Shown one piece after another: positions 9,783 to 20,614 of a stretch of DNA of 53,366 nt (position 1 is the first letter of the stretch; every line of letters starts with the position of its first letter). The notes beneath the pieces were generated by a model. It did no database searches and was not told the origin of the DNA. It worked only from the letters and a program-made list of their open reading frames with translations. Location of the stretch: IMG/VR virus record IMGVR_UViG_3300025621_001498, positions 1-53,366 of that record; one strand, written 5' to 3'. The stretch comes from a virus. Taxonomy: Duplodnaviria; Caudoviricetes. The position numbers and the translations under genes were made by a program.

Positions 9783-11816
9783 TCAGCGACGGCGCGAGCG
9801 CCCAAATTTTGTGGCGAGCTGCTTGAGGTTGAGCGCATCAGTTGGGCTGGCATACAAACCGACTTCCTCGCCGCCCATCTCAATCGCAACACGCCCTAGG
9901 TTTGGCATTGACGGCGCGGCGCTTGCCGCGGCCTCCGAAATTCCCGCACCAAAGTCAGGGATGTTCAGCCCGGCCAGGCGCGTCATCAGATTTTGCGATG
10001 CGGTGGCAGTGAGCACCTGCTCACCGCCTGCGAAGTTCACCAGCTCGGGGCCTTTCTCGCCGACCCATGCCATCCCGGCCGGCGCACTATTGGTGCCTTT
10101 GGCAAAACCCGGCGGCTTCGGCAGGTTGGGCACAAACACATACCCATCTTCATCGGCCTGACCGGCCTGTGGCATTGCGACTTTTGGGGTAATCACCATC
10201 GAATTGCTGATTTCAGCGGCGAGCGCCTGCATCACGCCCTTGATTCGGGCGATCTCTTCCGGGGGAAGTTCTACGCTAACCTTGACGTTGCTGGCTTCGT
10301 CCAGCACCACCTTCAGCCGCTTGGCATCTTCCTCGGCTTTGTTAAAGCTGGCCTGCGCTTTGTCTACGTTGATCTGATCCGCTGACTGCTCGATCGCCTG
10401 CAACTCGCGAATGAACCCTTCAAATCCGTATGTACTTTCACCTGCAGCGGCCAGCTGGTTTAGCACTTCAAGCGCAGCCTGGGCCTGCTTCTTAGCGCCC
10501 TCTACATCGCCACCCGCCAAGGCAGCACGGGCTGAAACTTTTAGCGCCTGCGCCTGGCCGTAGGAAGGGTCACCGCCGGCACCGCCAAGCTTGGCCAGCG
10601 CCTCGCTGTAACGCTTCTCGGTATCGAGCTGGGCCTTCTTGGCATCCTCTAACTGTTTCGCTGCTTCACGCTCGGCCTTAATTCGCTCGGCTAGCGCGGA
10701 TTTTGCGTCCTTAACTTGTTTCTTGAGCTGCTCGCCCATGGCTTCGGTGGTCTGCTTAAGGTCGCTGACCATAATCTGCTGTTGTTTCTTCTGCTCAACG
10801 GCGGCTTGGGTTGCGGCCTCGCCGGCGCCTGACCAAAGATCCTTAACCCGCTTGATCATCAGGCCCTGCTCGCGCGCGTTCTCCTCACCCACCTCGCGCA
10901 TAATGTCGGCCGCCTGGGTGAATTCACCTTTAGCAACAGATACCGCCGCCGCAGCAGAAGCACCTATAAGGCGCCCGAGAGAACCAAATCCATTAGCCGC
11001 CACCAGCACTACGGTTGCCAGAACCTTAAGGGCACCACCAAGCACATCGGCTACAACCCTCCCGGCCTCCCCCTCTTTGTTCACATCAACCAGCAATTGG
11101 GAAAGATCAACCAGCGAAGGCAGCAGCTCTGCGGCAATCTGGTTGCCGGCGCCGGCGCCAGCCTCGCCCAGGCGGGTTATGTTGTCGTTGAACACCTCCG
11201 CCTTGGCGGCGGTGTCCTCCGAAATAATCAGGCCCAGGGCTTCCGCTTCCTTGCGCAGCGCTTCCAGGCCTTCAGCTCCGCCGTTAAGCAGCGGGATCAG
11301 CTTGGCGCCGGATCGGCCAAACAGCTCCATGGCAATGGCGGACTTTTGCACGCCATCCGGCATCTGCTGGAAGCGATCGGCAAGCTCAGCCAATACCTGA
11401 TCGCTGCTCTTGATCTGGCCGCTGGCGTTTACAACCGATATGCCGACGCGGTCGAAGGCCTCAACCTGCGCCTTGCCGCCATTGGCAGCCGCATCAATCG
11501 TGCGGTTCAGCTTAGAAAGCCCGGCATCGAGTTCGCCGCTACCAACACCAGCCAGCTTCGCGGCGTAGGTAAGTGCGGTGTATTCCTCTACCGCCAACCC
11601 CACAGCGCTGGCGGATTTGGTGGCGGCATCGGCGGCATTAATGCTGTTTTTAACAAAGGCCGCCAGCGCCGTAACAGAAAGCGCCCCAGCAATGTAGGTG
11701 CCAGCGGCTTTAGCACTGAGACCAATTTTATTCAGCTGCTGATCGGCCTCAGCGAAGGCAGCGCCAGCTTTGTTCTTGCCATCAATGATTAGCTGGGTGG
11801 TGATTTTATTTGACAT
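9783..11816 (-). CDS. Tail tape measure protein
   Basis: 677 aa Ala-rich helical protein; AMELFGRSGAKLIPLL and WVGEKGPE motifs. Confidence 0.92.
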   Translation of the reverse strand: MSNKITTQLIIDGKNKAGAAFAEADQQLNKIGLSAKAAGTYIAGALSVTALAAFVKNSINAADAATKSASAVGLAVEEYTALTYAAKLAGVGSGELDAGLSKLNRTIDAAANGGKAQVEAFDRVGISVVNASGQIKSSDQVLAELADRFQQMPDGVQKSAIAMELFGRSGAKLIPLLNGGAEGLEALRKEAEALGLIISEDTAAKAEVFNDNITRLGEAGAGAGNQIAAELLPSLVDLSQLLVDVNKEGEAGRVVADVLGGALKVLATVVLVAANGFGSLGRLIGASAAAAVSVAKGEFTQAADIMREVGEENAREQGLMIKRVKDLWSGAGEAATQAAVEQKKQQQIMVSDLKQTTEAMGEQLKKQVKDAKSALAERIKAEREAAKQLEDAKKAQLDTEKRYSEALAKLGGAGGDPSYGQAQALKVSARAALAGGDVEGAKKQAQAALEVLNQLAAAGESTYGFEGFIRELQAIEQSADQINVDKAQASFNKAEEDAKRLKVVLDEASNVKVSVELPPEEIARIKGVMQALAAEISNSMVITPKVAMPQAGQADEDGYVFVPNLPKPPGFAKGTNSAPAGMAWVGEKGPELVNFAGGEQVLTATASQNLMTRLAGLNIPDFGAGISEAAASAAPSMPNLGRVAIEMGGEEVGLYASPTDALNLKQLATKFGRSRRR

Positions 11817-12058
11817 TAACCCAGCCCCTTCATGAGCTTCTGGAAGTCTTTCTTGGATGCTCGAGCGGCGCGAACGGCTAGCGCGGCATCTCGCAGCGCA
11901 TCCTTCTTGCCGACTGCCACAGCCTCAATAAACCCCTCGATCTGCGGCAGGGTATAACTCTGAATATCAGCCCAGGCGTGGCCCGCGGATATCAGTTGTT
12001 GCGTAATGCCTGCCCAGCTAGAACTTCCGCCAGTCCTATCAGGGCTTGGTCGAAAAAA
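11816..12058 (-). CDS. Tail assembly chaperone frameshift extension (gpT equivalent)
   Basis: -1 frame is open from slippery T TTT TTC (12058-12052) to a TAA overlapping the tape measure ATG; no own start. Confidence 0.8.
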   Translation of the reverse strand, partial: FFRPSPDRTGGSSSWAGITQQLISAGHAWADIQSYTLPQIEGFIEAVAVGKKDALRDAALAVRAARASKKDFQKLMKGLG

Positions 12059-12354
12059 CTGGCGTTCACCCGCACCACATGCACCATCAACTCAACAGCT
12101 ACAGCTGCCGGCAAACGCCAGATCTGCCACGCGGTGAGGGTGGTTGCGCGGCCGAGGATCGCTCGCAGGTTTTTGTTTTTGGATGCATACAGCAGCACCG
12201 CGCCAGGGGCCGGGCTGGCCAGCGCCGCCATCAGCTCCGCTGAGGCTTTGCCAAATACCTCGAAGTGACGCAGCTGCACCGGCTTTATTCCTACCGACCG
12301 GCCATTCACATCAGCCAAAACAGTCGCCGGGAAAAGGATTTGAAGCTCTGACAT
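11992..12354 (-). CDS. Tail assembly chaperone (gpG equivalent)
   Basis: Upstream of tape measure; slippery heptamer near 3' end. Confidence 0.8.
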   Translation of the reverse strand: MSELQILFPATVLADVNGRSVGIKPVQLRHFEVFGKASAELMAALASPAPGAVLLYASKNKNLRAILGRATTLTAWQIWRLPAAVAVELMVHVVRVNASFFDQALIGLAEVLAGQALRNN

Positions 12355-16004: not shown

Positions 16005-16628
16005 TCAGCGGTAACGGCGGAAGGCGAAGCTGGTGATGCCATCGCGGCCCAGCTCGGACTCGCGCTCATTGATCTCGACACAGCCGAAACCCTGCCGGGC
16101 GAACCAGGCGATCAGGCCGTTTTGTGTGAAGTACCAGAGATGCTCGCCAGGCTTGTAGTGCTTGCTGGCCAGACAATCGGAGAGGCTGAAGTAGATCGGC
16201 ATGGAGACGAAAACCCAGTCGCCCACCTGATCAAGCAGGGTCTCTGGATCGGGTATGTGCTCGAGGCTATCCCAGCAGGATATTGCTTCTGTCACCCCGG
16301 AGCGATTGGAGTAGATATCGAAATAGCGCTCGCGCGACTTAAGCCACGCCACCGCCTCGGGGTTCACGTCGTAGCCCCAACCATCTGCATCAAGCACGAA
16401 GCGCCCACCACCGATGCCGATGTCTACAACACCGCCGGCATAGTGGCGTTTGACCATTGCCACGCGGGCGGCAGTGAGTTCGGCACCCATCGGGGTGGCG
16501 TCCAGGGCCTGGTACTTCTCGAAGTAGGGGCCGCTGTAATCCATCGGCGGGCGTGGGTGGTAGCCCATACCAAGCTCTTCAGACCACAGCAGGCAGTCGG
16601 TCAGCCCATTCGGCAAAGCGCTGGTCAT
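16005..16628 (-). CDS. Class I SAM-dependent methyltransferase
   Basis: VVDIGIGGG motif I, GYDVN, WDSLEHIPDP, EHLWYF. Confidence 0.85.
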   Translation of the reverse strand: MTSALPNGLTDCLLWSEELGMGYHPRPPMDYSGPYFEKYQALDATPMGAELTAARVAMVKRHYAGGVVDIGIGGGRFVLDADGWGYDVNPEAVAWLKSRERYFDIYSNRSGVTEAISCWDSLEHIPDPETLLDQVGDWVFVSMPIYFSLSDCLASKHYKPGEHLWYFTQNGLIAWFARQGFGCVEINERESELGRDGITSFAFRRYR

Positions 16629-17439
16629 AGTTGGCGATTCTCTTGTCACAGGTGTGTTGCCGCTCAGTGCAGCGGCAGAAGTTGTCCGGCACAGCGAAGG
16701 TCAGCTGGCTGGTTTTCATTGCGCGATCGGTGATCAGTTCTGGCGCGTTGTAGCCACCCTGCCCACCACACACGACCCAGGCCGGCACGCCGGCGGCAAT
16801 GCTGGCCGGGACTACCCAGCCGATGCCGCCAATCACAGCGGCGGCGCCCTGCAGCAGGGCAAGCAGTTGCTCAACCGGCAGTTCGCCGGCGTGGTAGCGC
16901 ACATCCGCAGCGGGCAGTGGCTCAAGCGCCCACTCATGTCCAGGCTGCAGGTCTGCCACCGAAACCACCTGGTAGCCGCGCCGGCGCATTTCAGCGGCAG
17001 CGGCGGCGATGTACTCGGGCAGCGGATTGCGGGCATCCGCCCGCCACTCGGCCCGCACGGTTACCGGACGCACCAACACATAGCGGCCGGTAACGGGTGG
17101 CGAGCCGAAGCCGGGCAAGTCCAGCACACCGGGCTGCACCCGGAAGGCGCTCCGCATGCCGTTGTAAATGCCGGCACCGCCATAGCGGATGTTCAGCGTG
17201 CCCAAGCCGCTTGGCGGCCTGACCCACTTGGCGTGCCGCTGGATGTTCTTGGCCTGAGTGCGCAGCTCAGTGGCTGGGCGCACACAGCGCACGTGAGGCA
17301 TGTCCTGATACAGCTCCGGCCATGGGGTTTCCAGAAACACCGGGCCACGCAACTGGCGGATAAAGGCGCGTTGGTAAATGCAATCGCCGAGGCCTTTCAT
17401 TCCACGGATCAGCACAGTCAGACGCCTGGGGCCGGGCAA
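16579..17439 (-). CDS. GT-B glycosyltransferase, GT9/heptosyltransferase-like
   Basis: IRGMKGLGD N-terminal motif; GELPVEQLLALLQGAAAVIG...ASIAAGVP C-terminal pattern. Confidence 0.7.
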   Translation of the reverse strand: MPGPRRLTVLIRGMKGLGDCIYQRAFIRQLRGPVFLETPWPELYQDMPHVRCVRPATELRTQAKNIQRHAKWVRPPSGLGTLNIRYGGAGIYNGMRSAFRVQPGVLDLPGFGSPPVTGRYVLVRPVTVRAEWRADARNPLPEYIAAAAAEMRRRGYQVVSVADLQPGHEWALEPLPAADVRYHAGELPVEQLLALLQGAAAVIGGIGWVVPASIAAGVPAWVVCGGQGGYNAPELITDRAMKTSQLTFAVPDNFCRCTERQHTCDKRIANYDQRFAEWADRLPAVV

Positions 17440-17630
17440 ACCTCTATGGAGATTTCGCTGTCAAAAAGCACGACATCTGCCGCCCCAAGGCGAGTGACAA
17501 ACACTTCTCTGGCGTAGCTAAGCAGCCGATCGTGTTGCTCCAGATTCAGGCGTGAAGGCACCTTCAGTACAACGGTGTCGCCGGGGGTGATCTTCGTCCG
17601 GAGTATTTCAGTGACCTCGGGGAGGTTCAT
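17418..17630 (-). CDS. Hypothetical protein
   Basis: 70 aa, overlaps both neighbours. Confidence 0.55.
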   Translation of the reverse strand: MNLPEVTEILRTKITPGDTVVLKVPSRLNLEQHDRLLSYAREVFVTRLGAADVVLFDSEISIEVCPAPGV

Positions 17631-18184
17631 AGCGCTTGCTCCAGCAGCATACGCGGGAAGCAGCTCAATGCCGTTTCCCGACTGCAGTTGATGATTTCGA
17701 TACTTGGGTGATCTTTGCGCAGCTGCTCGAACTGCTCAGGCCAGTTGGCAATTGCACCAGCGTTGCCCAGCTTTGCCGGGTGATCGCCATGCCAGTGGCG
17801 GCGGCCACCGGTGTACTGCATGTCATAGCCCAGCAGCAGCACGCGCTGAGCGCCGCGGGCGATGGCAAGTGCCACTGCGCCGGCCCCGGAGTTGCGGTAA
17901 TCCTTCAAGCGCCAGGGCATTACGCCGTAGGGCGTGAGATTCATGGTTGCCAGTTCGCCGGCAAATACACGGCGAACCTCTGGGATGTACTCAGCCCACC
18001 ACGCTCTATCCATGGCGAACAATGCATCTGCCCAGGGCACGATGCGGAAACTGGTGTTGGCACAAACTACGGCTTTGGTTTGGCCTGCTTCGGCTTCTCG
18101 CCAGCGCCGGACTTGTTCGCAGTCTTCGCGGGTGAGGCTTGGCCCACTGGCGATACAGACGGCGGTGTGCCAGGTTGGGGCTTT
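17627..18184 (-). CDS. DUF115/MAF-like transferase domain, probably expressed by -1 frameshift
   Basis: Frame open to 18241; AVCIASGPSL, VVCANTSF, NSGAGAVALA, VLLLGYDM, IINCS; first canonical start (18040) lies downstream of the conserved N-terminal motifs. Confidence 0.7.
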   Translation of the reverse strand, partial: KAPTWHTAVCIASGPSLTREDCEQVRRWREAEAGQTKAVVCANTSFRIVPWADALFAMDRAWWAEYIPEVRRVFAGELATMNLTPYGVMPWRLKDYRNSGAGAVALAIARGAQRVLLLGYDMQYTGGRRHWHGDHPAKLGNAGAIANWPEQFEQLRKDHPSIEIINCSRETALSCFPRMLLEQAL

Positions 18185-18336
18185 GGGGCTTTTTCGCCCT
18201 CGGCTTCCGCGACAAGGTTTTTGCCCTGCAACTGCAGGAACTCATTGCGCGACAGCGGGAATGGTTTGGACTTTCTCGACTTGATCTCATTGCCCAGCTG
18301 AAACGAACGCAAGGCGATAGCGATAACGTGAGACAT
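18067..18336 (-). CDS. Small basic capsid-adjacent protein
   Basis: GAGGT SD before ATG 18336; directly after capsid gene; Pro/Lys-rich tail. Confidence 0.75.
   Translation of the reverse strand: MSHVIAIALRSFQLGNEIKSRKSKPFPLSRNEFLQLQGKNLVAEAEGEKAPKPQPGTPPSVSPVGQASPAKTANKSGAGEKPKQAKPKP
18181..18187 (-). promoter_or_regulatory. Putative -1 ribosomal frameshift site C CCA AAG
   Basis: In-frame X XXY YYZ heptamer; GAGG 10 nt upstream; CTGGC...GCCAG hairpin 7 nt downstream. Confidence 0.7.
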
Positions 18337-18347
18337 AGACACCTCTG

Positions 18348-18375
18348 AACAGGGACCGGGTTACCGGTCCCTGTT
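18348..18375 (-). terminator. 12-bp hairpin after capsid gene (terminator or mRNA stabiliser)
   Basis: AACAGGGACCGG-GTTA-CCGGTCCCTGTT. Confidence 0.65.
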
Positions 18376-18389
18376 GGGTTGCGGGTGGA

Positions 18390-19766
18390 TTAGCTGCCAG
18401 TCAAGGAGCCAGTAACGAAGGCTTCAGGACGGTACACGGCAAACGCCAGGCGCTCCTCGGCACGGATCGAAACCATGTTGGTTTCGAAGTCCTTGTCGTT
18501 CTCGGTCGAGATCAGGATCTCGGCCATGAGGCGGTCGAAGATCTGCGCGCCAAGGCTGAACGCACCAACCAGGAAGTCGTCCTGCACGATTGCCTGGGTG
18601 GCCACAACAGGGCGAGCCCACAGGCGTGCAGCAGTACCATCCTGCGGCACGGCAATGATGTAGCGGTTCTCGCCATCCTTGGTCAGCTCGATGGCCGCCC
18701 AGTCGATTGGGTTGAGAACGATGCCGCTGGCAGGGAACTCAGCCAGTTCAGCCTGCAGCAGCGCCAGGCGCAGACGGTCGATGCGCTGCTCGGCAGTCAC
18801 GCTAATGCCAGCCGGGGCAGAGTAGGCGTTGGCCTGAGGGATCAGGCCATGCACGTTCACGCCAGTGCCATTGCCGTAAAGCAGCTGCGATTCTTCAGCG
18901 AGCAGCAGGCCATAGCGGGCGCGGGCGTCGATGTAGCTCTGCAGAGCAGAAGCGTCATCGAGGATCTGACGGCTGGCCTTGAACAGGTGCGCAATGGTGC
19001 GCACCGGTGCGTTGTCCAGTTCGAAGGTGATCTCCGAATATGGCTTCGCAGTACCCTCGGTTACTGGCGCAGCATTGTTGGTGAAGCCAGTTTCGCGAAC
19101 GTACTCGATGGAGTTGCTGCCAGTGGTGCCAGGCGCAACCAGGTCACGGATGGTCAGGCGGCGCTCAGGCGCGGCCACAATGCCAGGGCGGCGATCAGGC
19201 GCAACCAGATTGCCACCGGAACCATCCACCGAGGTGATGGCGGCACGCGGGATCTCGATACGGCGCGAACCACGGAAGGACGCATTCAGGTCCTTCATCT
19301 GCTCGCTTTCGGCAACCAACTGGCCAACCGACTTGGGTGCGGCTTCCGGCTGGTTGCGGGTGCCAGCATTAACCAGCTTCTGCTCGGCTTCCTGCAGGCG
19401 GGCCTGCAGCTCGCCCTGCTTGGTCAGCATCTCGTCGACCTTGGTACGGGTTTCACCGTGCATCTCGCCGGCAGCCTTGATTTCCTTTTCGGTCTTCTCG
19501 GCGTAGGTCTTCAGCTGGTCACCAACGGTTTTGAGATTTGCCTGAACTTCTTTGTACTCGGCTTCGATATCGGCTTCGCCGATCTTGCCCAGCTGGGCAC
19601 GCATACCGGTGTAACGGCTGGCGCCTGGCTGGATGAGTGCGGTGGCCAAGGCCACTACAGAAACGGCGGCAACAATGGATTGGATGCTGACACCGATAGT
19701 AATCGGCACCAGGGCAGCAACAGCCAGGACGGCCATCATAAACAGTGGAGAAAGACGGAATTTCAT
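18390..19766 (-). CDS. Major capsid protein, HK97 family
   Basis: Coiled-coil delta domain, LTIRDLVAPG, ASRQILDD, IRAEERLAFAVYRPEAF. Confidence 0.96.
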   Translation of the reverse strand: MKFRLSPLFMMAVLAVAALVPITIGVSIQSIVAAVSVVALATALIQPGASRYTGMRAQLGKIGEADIEAEYKEVQANLKTVGDQLKTYAEKTEKEIKAAGEMHGETRTKVDEMLTKQGELQARLQEAEQKLVNAGTRNQPEAAPKSVGQLVAESEQMKDLNASFRGSRRIEIPRAAITSVDGSGGNLVAPDRRPGIVAAPERRLTIRDLVAPGTTGSNSIEYVRETGFTNNAAPVTEGTAKPYSEITFELDNAPVRTIAHLFKASRQILDDASALQSYIDARARYGLLLAEESQLLYGNGTGVNVHGLIPQANAYSAPAGISVTAEQRIDRLRLALLQAELAEFPASGIVLNPIDWAAIELTKDGENRYIIAVPQDGTAARLWARPVVATQAIVQDDFLVGAFSLGAQIFDRLMAEILISTENDKDFETNMVSIRAEERLAFAVYRPEAFVTGSLTGS

Positions 19767-19777
19767 GGCGTAAATCC

Positions 19778-20614
19778 TCATGCGGGAAAGGAGAGCTTTG
19801 GGAGTGGTTCCAGGTTCAGCTCGACAGCGCGAGGCGTGTCGGTCGGGACAGCGCTCGGCGTGTCCCCGCCAGCAGCGCTCGGCGTGCTGGGCTTGAAGGT
19901 GGCGAACATTTCGCGGCGCTCAGTACGGGACATGCCGGCTTTGGCCAGGGCCATATCCATGGCCTTGAGGGCGCTGGCTTGTTTGGCTTCTGGGTCAGGC
20001 CGCTCGACCACTTCTTCCGCAGTTAGCAGGCTGGTGGCCAGGCCAAGCTCTAAGGCGCGTTTGCCGCGAATGAAGGTTTCGTCGTCCATCAACTCAGCCA
20101 TGTCTTCCACTGGCTGGCCGCTGGTTTCGGCGTACAGGTCGGCCATTGCCGCGTCGAACTCTTGGAGGTCGTCAGCTACATCGCGCAGGTAGTGGCGGTT
20201 GCCGGCGAGCCAGGTCCAGCAGTTGTGGATCATCAGGAAAGCGCTGCTCGCTACTTGGCGCTCTGCGCCGGCGAGGTAGATGACAGATGCTGCAGAGGCC
20301 GCCAGGCCAAGAACTTTGGTGGTGACCTTTTGGCTGTGCTCGCGCAGGCGGTTGTAGATAGCAATGCCTTCGAACATGTCGCCGCCCGGCGAGTTGATGT
20401 AGACGTCGACCGGTTTGTCGCCGATGGCGCGCAAGGCGGCATCAATACGCTTGAGGGTAACGCCCTCGCCAAACCAATCTTCACCAATGATTCCGTAGAT
20501 GGTGATGGTGTCGGACGTGTTTTCAACGGCGGCCTTGATGGCCGGGTTCCATTTCTCGAGCGCGCGCGGGCTCAGCTCGGAGCGAATGCTCCCAGCTTTG
20601 ATGTTCAGCTGCAT
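19778..20614 (-). CDS. ClpP-type head maturation protease
   Basis: INSPGGDMFEG, GLAASAAS, LMIHN. Confidence 0.95.
   Translation of the reverse strand: MQLNIKAGSIRSELSPRALEKWNPAIKAAVENTSDTITIYGIIGEDWFGEGVTLKRIDAALRAIGDKPVDVYINSPGGDMFEGIAIYNRLREHSQKVTTKVLGLAASAASVIYLAGAERQVASSAFLMIHNCWTWLAGNRHYLRDVADDLQEFDAAMADLYAETSGQPVEDMAELMDDETFIRGKRALELGLATSLLTAEEVVERPDPEAKQASALKAMDMALAKAGMSRTERREMFATFKPSTPSAAGGDTPSAVPTDTPRAVELNLEPLPKLSFPA

Follow-up and report, generated by a model that had tools for sequence, protein, structure and literature searches.

The window analyzed here is the whole of a 53,366-nucleotide (nt) stretch of Caudoviricetes DNA, IMG/VR record IMGVR_UViG_3300025621_001498, a phage-like contig of 53 kb that represents the entire assembly. 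On its minus strand, directly downstream of the gene for an HK97-type major capsid protein, a small open reading frame (ORF) of 89 amino acids (aa) overlaps a longer frame, displaced by -1, that encodes a transferase-like domain and has no start codon of its own ahead of the conserved core. An earlier interpretation of this DNA made without database searches, referred to below as the sequence-only reading, had proposed that the two are joined by a programmed -1 ribosomal frameshift at the heptamer C_CCA_AAG, and this proposal is now supported by five kinds of comparative evidence. The features of the locus and of its surroundings are listed in Table 1.

The transferase-like frame and the small ORF

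The transferase frame is open from position 18241 to its stop at 17627 (204 codons, protein P0001) and lies in the -1 frame relative to the small ORF. No ATG, GTG or TTG occurs in the window's open -1 frame before the conserved W..VCIASGPSL segment, and the first canonical start is a GTG at 18040, codon 68 of the frame. Initiation at this GTG would cost about 45 residues, including the C, SGPSL, D and N that are invariant in the alignment of homologues. On all of these points the sequence bears out what the sequence-only reading had described. The frame matches PHROG 4603 with an E-value of 1.7e-58, residues 30-204 aligning to positions 1-173 of the 178 in the profile, which itself begins at CIASGPSL.

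The annotation of PHROG 4603 is 'alpha-2,3-sialyltransferase'. Against the Pfam family PF01973 (MptE-like, the former DUF115) the window sequence reached 16 bits, below the gathering cut-off of 34.6, and 27 of 49 relatives matched the family weakly, with a best E-value of 1.7e-5; the enzyme thus appears to be only a distant relative of MptE-like/DUF115 proteins. Its domain contains 19 invariant columns across 49 sequences. The enzyme profile found nothing significant among PDB sequences, and an Atlas search with the enzyme gave leads that were all below 0.9, one of them to WaaZ_KDO_III. We use 'transferase' as a family label, given that the name sialyltransferase or CMP-ulosonic-acid transferase would derive from the PHROG name and from this sub-0.9 Atlas lead.

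The small ORF is preceded by a Shine-Dalgarno (SD) sequence, and a comparable GAGG/GGAG-like element precedes the start in most of the homologous small ORFs examined. Its 89-aa product consists of a conserved N-terminal domain followed by a tail rich in proline, alanine and lysine, this tail being merely an out-of-frame reading of the transferase N-terminus. Pfam DUF7210 (PF23843) matches 21 of the 53 aligned homologues of the N-terminal domain (hereafter the N-domain), with a best E-value of 3.8e-7; the window's own 51-aa domain gave no match to DUF7210 at E ≤ 1, and its link to this family runs through alignment A3. Searches with the N-domain profile found nothing significant among PDB sequences, and hence no solved relative, the Atlas search returned no usable match, and a profile search for longer proteins bearing the N-domain yielded one uninformative match.

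Within the overlap, the heptamer is in frame with the small ORF (GCC CCA AAG), and the GAGG upstream of it and the stem arms downstream are all present where the sequence-only reading had placed them. A -1 slip at the heptamer would give a protein of 52 + 184 = 236 aa, so that the two product sizes given in that reading, 89 and about 236 aa, match those computed here.

Table 1. Positions of the features of the probably recoded locus and of neighboring genes in the window.
Feature	Position	Strand	Remarks
Head protease gene	19778-20614	-	
HK97-type major capsid protein gene	18390-19781	-	Directly upstream of the small ORF; Pfam Phage_capsid, E 2.4e-59
Shine-Dalgarno GAGG of the small ORF	18342-18345	-	5 nt before ATG 18336
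Small ORF, frame 0	18067-18336	-	89 aa; ATG 18336, stop 18067; PHROG 7993, E 3.1e-5
N-terminal domain, DUF7210-like	18184-18336	-	51 aa up to the slip-site proline; common to the short product and the predicted fusion; alignment A3 of 53 loci
Whole recoded gene (predicted)	17627-18336	-	Frame 0 from 18336 to 18181, then -1 frame from 18181 to 17627; predicted 236-aa fusion
Internal SD-like GAGG, possible stimulator	18198-18201	-	10 nt upstream of the heptamer
Heptamer C_CCA_AAG, proposed -1 shift site	18181-18187	-	In frame with the small ORF
Stem S1	18147-18173	-	5' arm CTGGC-ACA (18173-18166) with 3' arm TGT..GCCAG (18157-18147); starts 7 nt after the heptamer
Possible second helix S2 (pseudoknot)	18118-18164	-	Loop CGCCGTCT (18164-18157) with AGACTGCG (18125-18118); pairing seen in the centroid fold
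Transferase-like domain, -1 frame	17627-18181	-	184 codons and a stop, translated after the predicted shift; PHROG 4603; distantly related to MptE-like/DUF115
70-aa ORF	17418-17630	-	Coupled by an ATGA overlap to the transferase stop
286-aa protein gene	16579-17439	-	PHROG 6804 (function unknown), E 1.5e-141; same module
S-adenosylmethionine (SAM)-dependent methyltransferase gene	16005-16649	-	Pfam Methyltransf_23, E 5.2e-10; PHROG 6564; same module

Distribution of the overlapping layout among homologous loci

We compared the window with 137 homologous loci, 138 in total, drawn from annotated phage records, IMG/VR contigs (the best 80 of 557 confirmed) and 52 species-representative genomes. 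In 110 of the 138 loci the enzyme is encoded in frame -1 relative to a small ORF that begins upstream and extends 73-205 nt beyond the SGPSL motif; 26 loci have a start of their own, located 2-35 codons before the motif (for example PAJU2 gp10, P1 PmgO and locus L007), and two are fragments. The 110 frameshift-class loci correspond to 87 distinct 120-nt junctions and to 54 representatives below 92% identity, and they come from Pseudomonas, Bordetella, Achromobacter, Variovorax, Halomonas, Lysobacter, Dechloromonas and other genera. A capsid homologue lies directly upstream in all 90 frameshift-class loci with full flanks, compared with one of 18 own-start loci. The closest own-start relative (L007, 2477-3653; 69% identity) directly follows its capsid gene without a DUF7210 ORF, and is itself followed by a divergent paralogue of 202 aa with an SGPS motif.

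Among cultured phages, D3 carries the identical in-frame C CCA AAG, in orf6.5, which overlaps orf7. In RefSeq, orf7 of D3 (L001, 2615-3073) begins at a non-canonical ATC codon downstream of the conserved CLASGPSL, and in the GenBank record of phi1 (KT887557) the whole region is devoid of annotation. A join is not marked in any of the five annotated phage records that were examined (D3, phi1, Psp6, D14C and phita81A). In Psp6 (L005, 2396-2612) the small ORF has a long insertion, and candidate sites T_TTT_TTG (~2404) and A_AAG (~2433) are found upstream.

Conservation of the slippery site

A CCC-N site is present at the homologous position in 86 of the 87 distinct junctions, compared with none of 23 distinct own-start homologues. 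The CCC codon of the -1 frame precedes the SGPSL motif by 12-15 codons in these 86 junctions (by 13 in 75 of them), and frame 0 there reads xxC CCN. Since the conserved GRW follows merely 3-4 codons downstream, the frame change must fall at or just after CCC-N. The full heptamer C_CCA_AAG characterizes the Pseudomonas D3-like clade together with the window, and C_CCU or C_CCC is found elsewhere. All nine nonredundant heptamer-class relatives share an unchanged heptamer, whereas identity across its flanks (21 nt upstream and 7 nt downstream) is only 48%. The sequence-only reading had suggested that homologues be examined for a conserved heptamer or for natural in-frame fusions, and both were found, the latter in seven named proteins described below.

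The choice of codon at the site is also constrained. Across the 86 junctions, the frame-0 proline codon is CCA in 36 (followed by AAG in 35), CCU in 32, CCC in 16 and CCG in 2, although CCG accounts for 46% of background proline codons in the same loci. The tetramers C_CCU and C_CCC of most lineages imply slippage of tRNA-Pro in the A site. In E. coli, with a downstream pseudoknot, Sharma et al. (2014) ranked tetramers in the order A_AA.G >> U_UU.C > U_UU.U > C_CC.U = C_CC.C > A_AA.A, with C_CCA and C_CCG barely exceeding background and with V_VV.A_AA.R heptamers, including C_CC.A_AA.G, among the most efficient (PMC4066793, in the sections of that article drawn on here). The retention of C_CC.Y and the near-absence of C_CCG and of lone C_CCA fit this measured hierarchy, and C_CCA_AAG is described as highly shift-prone in E. 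coli in the part of the review by Atkins et al. (2016) used here (PMC5009743).

Stop codons in the -1 frame lie close ahead of the site in a number of lineages: four junctions (L071, L094, L097 and L098) have one immediately before CCC, 13 have one no more than 3 codons away and 17 no more than 6. In 48 of the 86 distinct junctions the open -1 frame lacks any canonical start. Synonymous diversity, calculated over the 54 representatives, is 0.00 at CCC and at most 0.29 (5-codon window) over the first 13 codons, compared with 0.53 gene-wide. Transcriptional slippage was ruled out as a cause of the frame change, as the site contains no homopolymer run longer than four bases.

A covarying stem downstream of the site

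The stem S1 of the window is homologous to a family-wide stem of 10-12 bp whose arms encode the GRW and IASGP segments of the enzyme, the GRW-encoding consensus GGCCGCUGGC being the reverse complement of the IASGP-encoding GCCAGCGGCC. On the 71-sequence alignment A2, 80.8% of the cells of the 12-bp helix are paired, compared with at most 54.5% when one arm is slid, and 21 cells show double changes, compared with 7.1 ± 2.3 in shuffled alignments, none of 500 shuffles reaching as high a value. Examples of compensatory change include GGCCGC/GCGGCC to GCCCGC/GCGGGC, and CGC-TGG/CCA-GCG to CAC-TGG/CCA-GTG. In such cases an amino-acid change on one arm is met by a synonymous change on the other, as with Gly to Ala on the 5' arm accompanied by GGC to GGG, or Arg to His accompanied by AGC to AGU.

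Of the 45 tetramer representatives, 27 have a 5-nt spacer between the slip site and the predicted stem, and seven of nine heptamer representatives have one of 5-7 nt, within the 5-9 nt expected for a stimulatory structure in bacterial -1 frameshift cassettes. Since the stem still starts 5-7 nt after the heptamer, its base must have moved when the motif grew by 3 nt. The median minimum free energy of the 48-nt segment is -20.3 kcal/mol for the 86 frameshift junctions, compared with -14.1 for the 23 own-start homologues.

A second helix, S2, would turn the stem into an H-type pseudoknot, which we regard as possible only, on the strength of complementarity. At the family level the loop GUCGUCUGC could pair with GCAGACGAC, which lies 25 nt beyond it; in A2, columns 43-51 and 76-84 show 76.8% pairing, a value to be read against the 71.4% obtained with a slide of +3. 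Synonymous diversity in the putative arms of S2 is low (0.04 at Val and 0.12 at Asp, compared with the gene mean of 0.53).

Natural in-frame fusions

A search with the -1-frame translation retrieved 1484 relatives, including proteins of 230-265 aa with N-termini resembling the small ORF. In seven of these, P0050, P0063, P0116, P0033, P0040, P0086 and P0088, the N-domain and the enzyme are encoded in a single frame. Comparison by hhalign of the N-domain profile A3, built from 53 frameshift loci, with the N-termini of the seven fusions (A4) gave a probability of 96.7% and an E-value of 3.7e-10. In P0050 and its relatives a frame-0-type TKVIRExP (compare L081, L089 and L096) continues directly into xxGRW..VVC, with the spacing predicted by a slip at the proline. 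No viral contigs matching the P0050 fusion were found in the homologue search.

A scan of 1.84 billion representatives placed about 18 fusions of N-domain and enzyme among its best 150 matches, together with at least 13 truncated calls of 130-170 aa, which are typical of frameshift loci. Three longer proteins of 522-526 aa (P0127, P0148 and P0173) hold a DUF7210 domain and a transferase domain in one chain, and the PHROG 6804-like C-terminal domain of P0127 is 33% identical (E 4e-33) to the 286-aa neighbor of the recoded locus. Fusions of the P0127 type are a Rosetta-stone link between the enzyme and this neighbor. On a quick tree with a weak backbone, the frameshift, fused and own-start forms are interleaved, implying at least 13 changes of state, and the heptamer class falls in one clade.

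Comparison with independent contigs

An indel artefact was the explanation that the sequence-only reading had asked to be excluded. Contigs from four other studies were compared with the window over 17600-18400, and none contains an insertion or deletion in 17634-18336. One X2 contig, which spans 17634-18400, differs by 13 substitutions and has a single indel at 18350, upstream of the small ORF, and pieces from X5, X6 and X7 show indels at 18355 and 18368 only.

Proposed mechanism and alternative explanations

Because the layout and the slip site are conserved, stop codons lie ahead of the site, the stem shows compensatory changes, synonymous variation is low and natural fusions exist, we consider it very probable that the small ORF and the start-less transferase frame constitute one gene, recoded by a -1 frameshift at C_CCA_AAG. 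Under this mechanism, ribosomes would initiate at ATG 18336 and first make the 51-aa DUF7210-like domain; most would then stay in frame 0 and stop at 18067, yielding the 89-aa protein, and a fraction would slip back by one base on C_CCA_AAG, with tRNA-Pro moving from CCA to CCC and tRNA-Lys from AAG to AAA. The slip would be aided by the stem 7 nt downstream and perhaps by the GAGG 10 nt upstream. Slipped ribosomes would read the -1 frame to 17627, producing a 236-aa protein that comprises the N-domain and a complete MptE/DUF115-like domain, and this fusion would be the sole route to a complete enzyme. From the comparisons above we infer slippage itself, its efficiency, the fusion as the active form of the enzyme and the roles of both products. 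The signal would be an old, family-wide cassette composed of a CCC-N slip site, a GC-rich stem 5-7 nt further on and possibly a pseudoknot, in which the D3-like clade and the window may have turned the tetramer into the tandem heptamer C_CCA_AAG while the base of the stem was shortened by about 3-4 nt.

Several observations weigh against a recoded gene. Tetramer motifs gave 0.26-5.6% frameshifting in E. coli reporters (PMC4066793, sections as above), so the fusion could be very rare. At the level of RNA structure, the RNAalifold consensus comprises 4 bp and does not recover the long stem, the D3-like rows break several pairs, and covariation of S2 in alignment A2 is not significant. The window's own stem of 5+3 bp, a weakened version of the family stem, is itself weak (fold z = -0.75; 48-nt window z = -0.6). 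The sequence-only reading had cast both an upstream SD and a downstream stem as stimulators, and the two halves of that claim fared differently: the stem covaries family-wide, weak as the window's copy is, while a core SD-like motif occurs in 16 of the 86 distinct junctions and so is no conserved part of the signal. Among frameshift-class junctions that of Psp6 is the sole one without a CCC site. A GTG or TTG located 21 codons before the motif provides a possible own start in 28 D3-like junctions; its context is poor, 18 of these codons being TTG without an SD and 10 being GTG with GAGG merely 3 nt away, and the window has no such codon. The close relatives L053 and L055 have stops between the -21-codon position and the heptamer. 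Finally, a low-depth X5 contig (depth 4) carries three G>T changes (18177, 18186 and 18216), one of which would destroy the heptamer. None of the three is present in another X5 contig that covers this region, and the all-G>T pattern at depth 4 within 40 nt looks like sequencing damage, or it could be a real variant without the slip site.

If the transferase were translated independently, from a non-canonical or internal codon or from GTG 18040 as a 137-aa protein, the overlap would be incidental. Such products are what gene callers predict: the window protein appears in the Atlas in a form that begins at residue 59, some 13 truncated representatives measure 130-170 aa, orf7 of D3 is annotated from its ATC codon, and the D3-like GTG or TTG at -21 codons yields the 198-aa P0008. 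In addition, own-start homologues without the N-domain exist and work, as in PAJU2 gp10, P1 PmgO and L007. This explanation is nevertheless quite improbable in our view: the window's open -1 frame offers none of the three canonical codons before the core, a start at 18040 drops invariant residues together with at least the first 40 positions of PHROG 4603, and stops directly before CCC (4 junctions) or within 6 codons of it (17) leave no room for initiation upstream of GRW. Only in the D3-like loci would it be possible, via the poor-context GTG or TTG, and it leaves the invariant CCC, the avoidance of CCG, the stem and the in-frame fusions unexplained. Still harder to credit is a broken gene without a functional enzyme, arising from a 1-nt deletion in an ancestral in-frame fusion or from an assembly indel. 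In-frame fusions do exist, of which the split form could be a decayed derivative, and the window comes from a metagenome-type contig. However, the split recurs in 110 loci and 87 junctions across many genera, including cultured phages such as D3, with a -1 frame that is intact and conserved to its end; 19 enzyme columns are invariant across 49 sequences; the contigs of other studies show no indel in the coding region; and neither the slip site, nor the covarying stem, nor the low synonymous diversity would be expected to persist in a pseudogene.

A narrower role for a real frameshift is a different matter, and we give a minority but serious chance to the idea that recoding serves only to throttle the enzyme behind a highly translated capsid gene, the 89-aa product and the N-domain having no capsid-related function. 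The low reporter values of tetramer sites quoted above (PMC4066793) fit this view, the own-start homologue L007 does without the N-domain even though it directly follows a capsid gene, and the tail of the 89-aa product, read out of frame, is free of constraint. On the other hand, the N-domains make up a conserved protein family (A3; 21 of 53 match DUF7210), and the post-capsid position is found in 90 of 90 frameshift-form loci as opposed to one of 18 own-start loci. The N-domain is, moreover, kept in the natural in-frame fusions, where slippage cannot throttle anything, which argues that the domain itself matters.

Regarding that function, phage glycosyltransferases suggestive of capsid glycosylation are mentioned for mycobacteriophages in the portion of PMC11256854 drawn on here, and by analogy a capsid-modifying role of the enzyme is plausible. 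The sequence-only reading had suggested a minority fusion that could tether the enzyme to capsids, which is likewise conjectural. A more specific proposal, which we put forward as speculative and doubtful, is that DUF7210 is a module binding the capsid or procapsid, and that Gag-Pol-like docking of the free N-domain and of a fixed, small fraction of fusion puts a glycan-building enzyme on the shell. There it would act on the capsid protein in situ, with the PHROG 6804 protein and the methyltransferase, which some lineages carry fused to it, as its partners. If this were true, recoding would set the stoichiometry for the enzymatic decoration of a phage head.

Neighboring genes in the late operon

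The late genes of the minus strand follow the order head protease, capsid, recoded locus, 70-aa ORF, 286-aa protein and methyltransferase, and then head-tail adaptor, neck and tail genes. No tRNA genes were found in the 53-kb window. The PHROG 6804 partner is present within the flank in 67 of the 90 frameshift-class loci, and the methyltransferase was found in 38 of the 90 within the fetched flank. The locus points to a module of three enzymes, as yet unexplored, that is associated with the capsid gene. The 286-aa neighbor itself gave no Pfam match and nothing significant in a PDB sequence search; its GxGD-rich N-terminus we take to resemble that of GT9 heptosyltransferases. The 70-aa ORF had no Pfam or PHROG match, and a tblastn search of the 89 other fully flanked frameshift-class loci did not find it in any.

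Two further observations concern structural genes of the window. The capsid ORF encodes 463 aa, compared with 395 aa in D3, the difference being about 68 extra N-terminal residues (19578-19781, minus strand) that are strongly hydrophobic (MKFRLSPLFMMAVLAVAALVP...) and shared by the closest relative, L006; either this is an unusual membrane-like addition to the delta domain, or the true start is an internal Met. Further along, the tail assembly chaperone ORF (PHROG 1442, 11992-12354, minus strand) is overlapped by an ORF of 91 codons (11816-12091) that lies in a different frame and extends to the start of the tape-measure gene, so that the region 11816-12354 has the usual G/GT frameshift layout. 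It is presumably the 'first' frameshift implied by the sequence-only reading, which had called the one at the transferase the second.

Significance and relation to known systems

The recoded locus would be a second widely conserved recoding event in the late operon of D3-like phages and of many HK97-type prophages of Pseudomonadota, spanning at least 54 nonredundant lineages and including the long-studied D3. The gene is mis-annotated or blank in all five phage records inspected, and databases contain many 'proteins' of 130-170 aa that lack the nucleotide-binding N-terminus of the enzyme. The family also amounts to a natural experiment in the evolution of frameshift sites, given that C_CC.Y and C_CC.A_AA.G alternate, the start of the stem shifts along with them, and fused and own-start forms arise repeatedly. 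We found no account in the literature of this frameshift, of recoding between orf6.5 and orf7 of D3 or of DUF7210, in a search that covered few subscription journals; the supplementary cluster lists of Antonov 2013 (GeneTack) and Sharma 2014 could include the family.

The retroviral Gag-Pol system offers a functional analogy only. There a minority -1 fusion couples an enzyme to a small or structural protein that is abundant, Pol being packaged via Gag (PMC5009743, part used here), whereas in the present system a structural N-domain or incorporation of the fusion into the capsid would be conjecture. Frameshifting in capsid genes is described, in the same part of that review, for T3/T7, Lactobacillus phage A2 and the Listeria phages A118, A500 and PSA, the last of which slips on a proline codon before a pseudoknot (PMC5009743). 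These cases share with ours recoding in or beside the capsid gene; they differ in that they lengthen the capsid protein, by a +1 shift in PSA, whereas here a separate small gene gains an enzyme. The G/GT pair of the tail assembly chaperone likewise combines a conserved -1 frameshift in a phage late operon with a short and a long product of common N-terminus, but the gene is a different one, the position here is post-capsid, and the outcome is fusion to an enzyme instead of a chaperone extension.

The slip sites of dnaX and copA of E. coli are A_AAA_AAG and C_CCA_AAG, respectively. Both resemble the heptamer class in their A-site slip of the A_AAG type and in producing two proteins with a common N-terminus. 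Frameshifting in copA is well supported in the portion of PMC9548414 used here. In dnaX and copA, however, the shift truncates the protein; here the short product is the one read in frame 0, and a shift would add a full enzyme to a small protein. The comparison with dnaX and IS911 drawn in the sequence-only reading is apt, and for most relatives the Z_ZZN tetramer with an IS3-type structure is closer (PMC4066793, sections as above).

The IS3/IS911-type cassettes described in that article have in common with the present family a slip motif in frame 0 that is followed after about 5 nt by a GC-rich stem or pseudoknot, a start-less -1 ORF, and fusion with a catalytic domain (PMC4066793). Here, by contrast, the catalytic partner is an enzyme of a phage structural operon, with no transposase involved, the arms of the stem encode residues of the enzyme (GRW and IASGP), and two types of motif occur within one family. 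What is described here is a new gene family with a known recoding mechanism.

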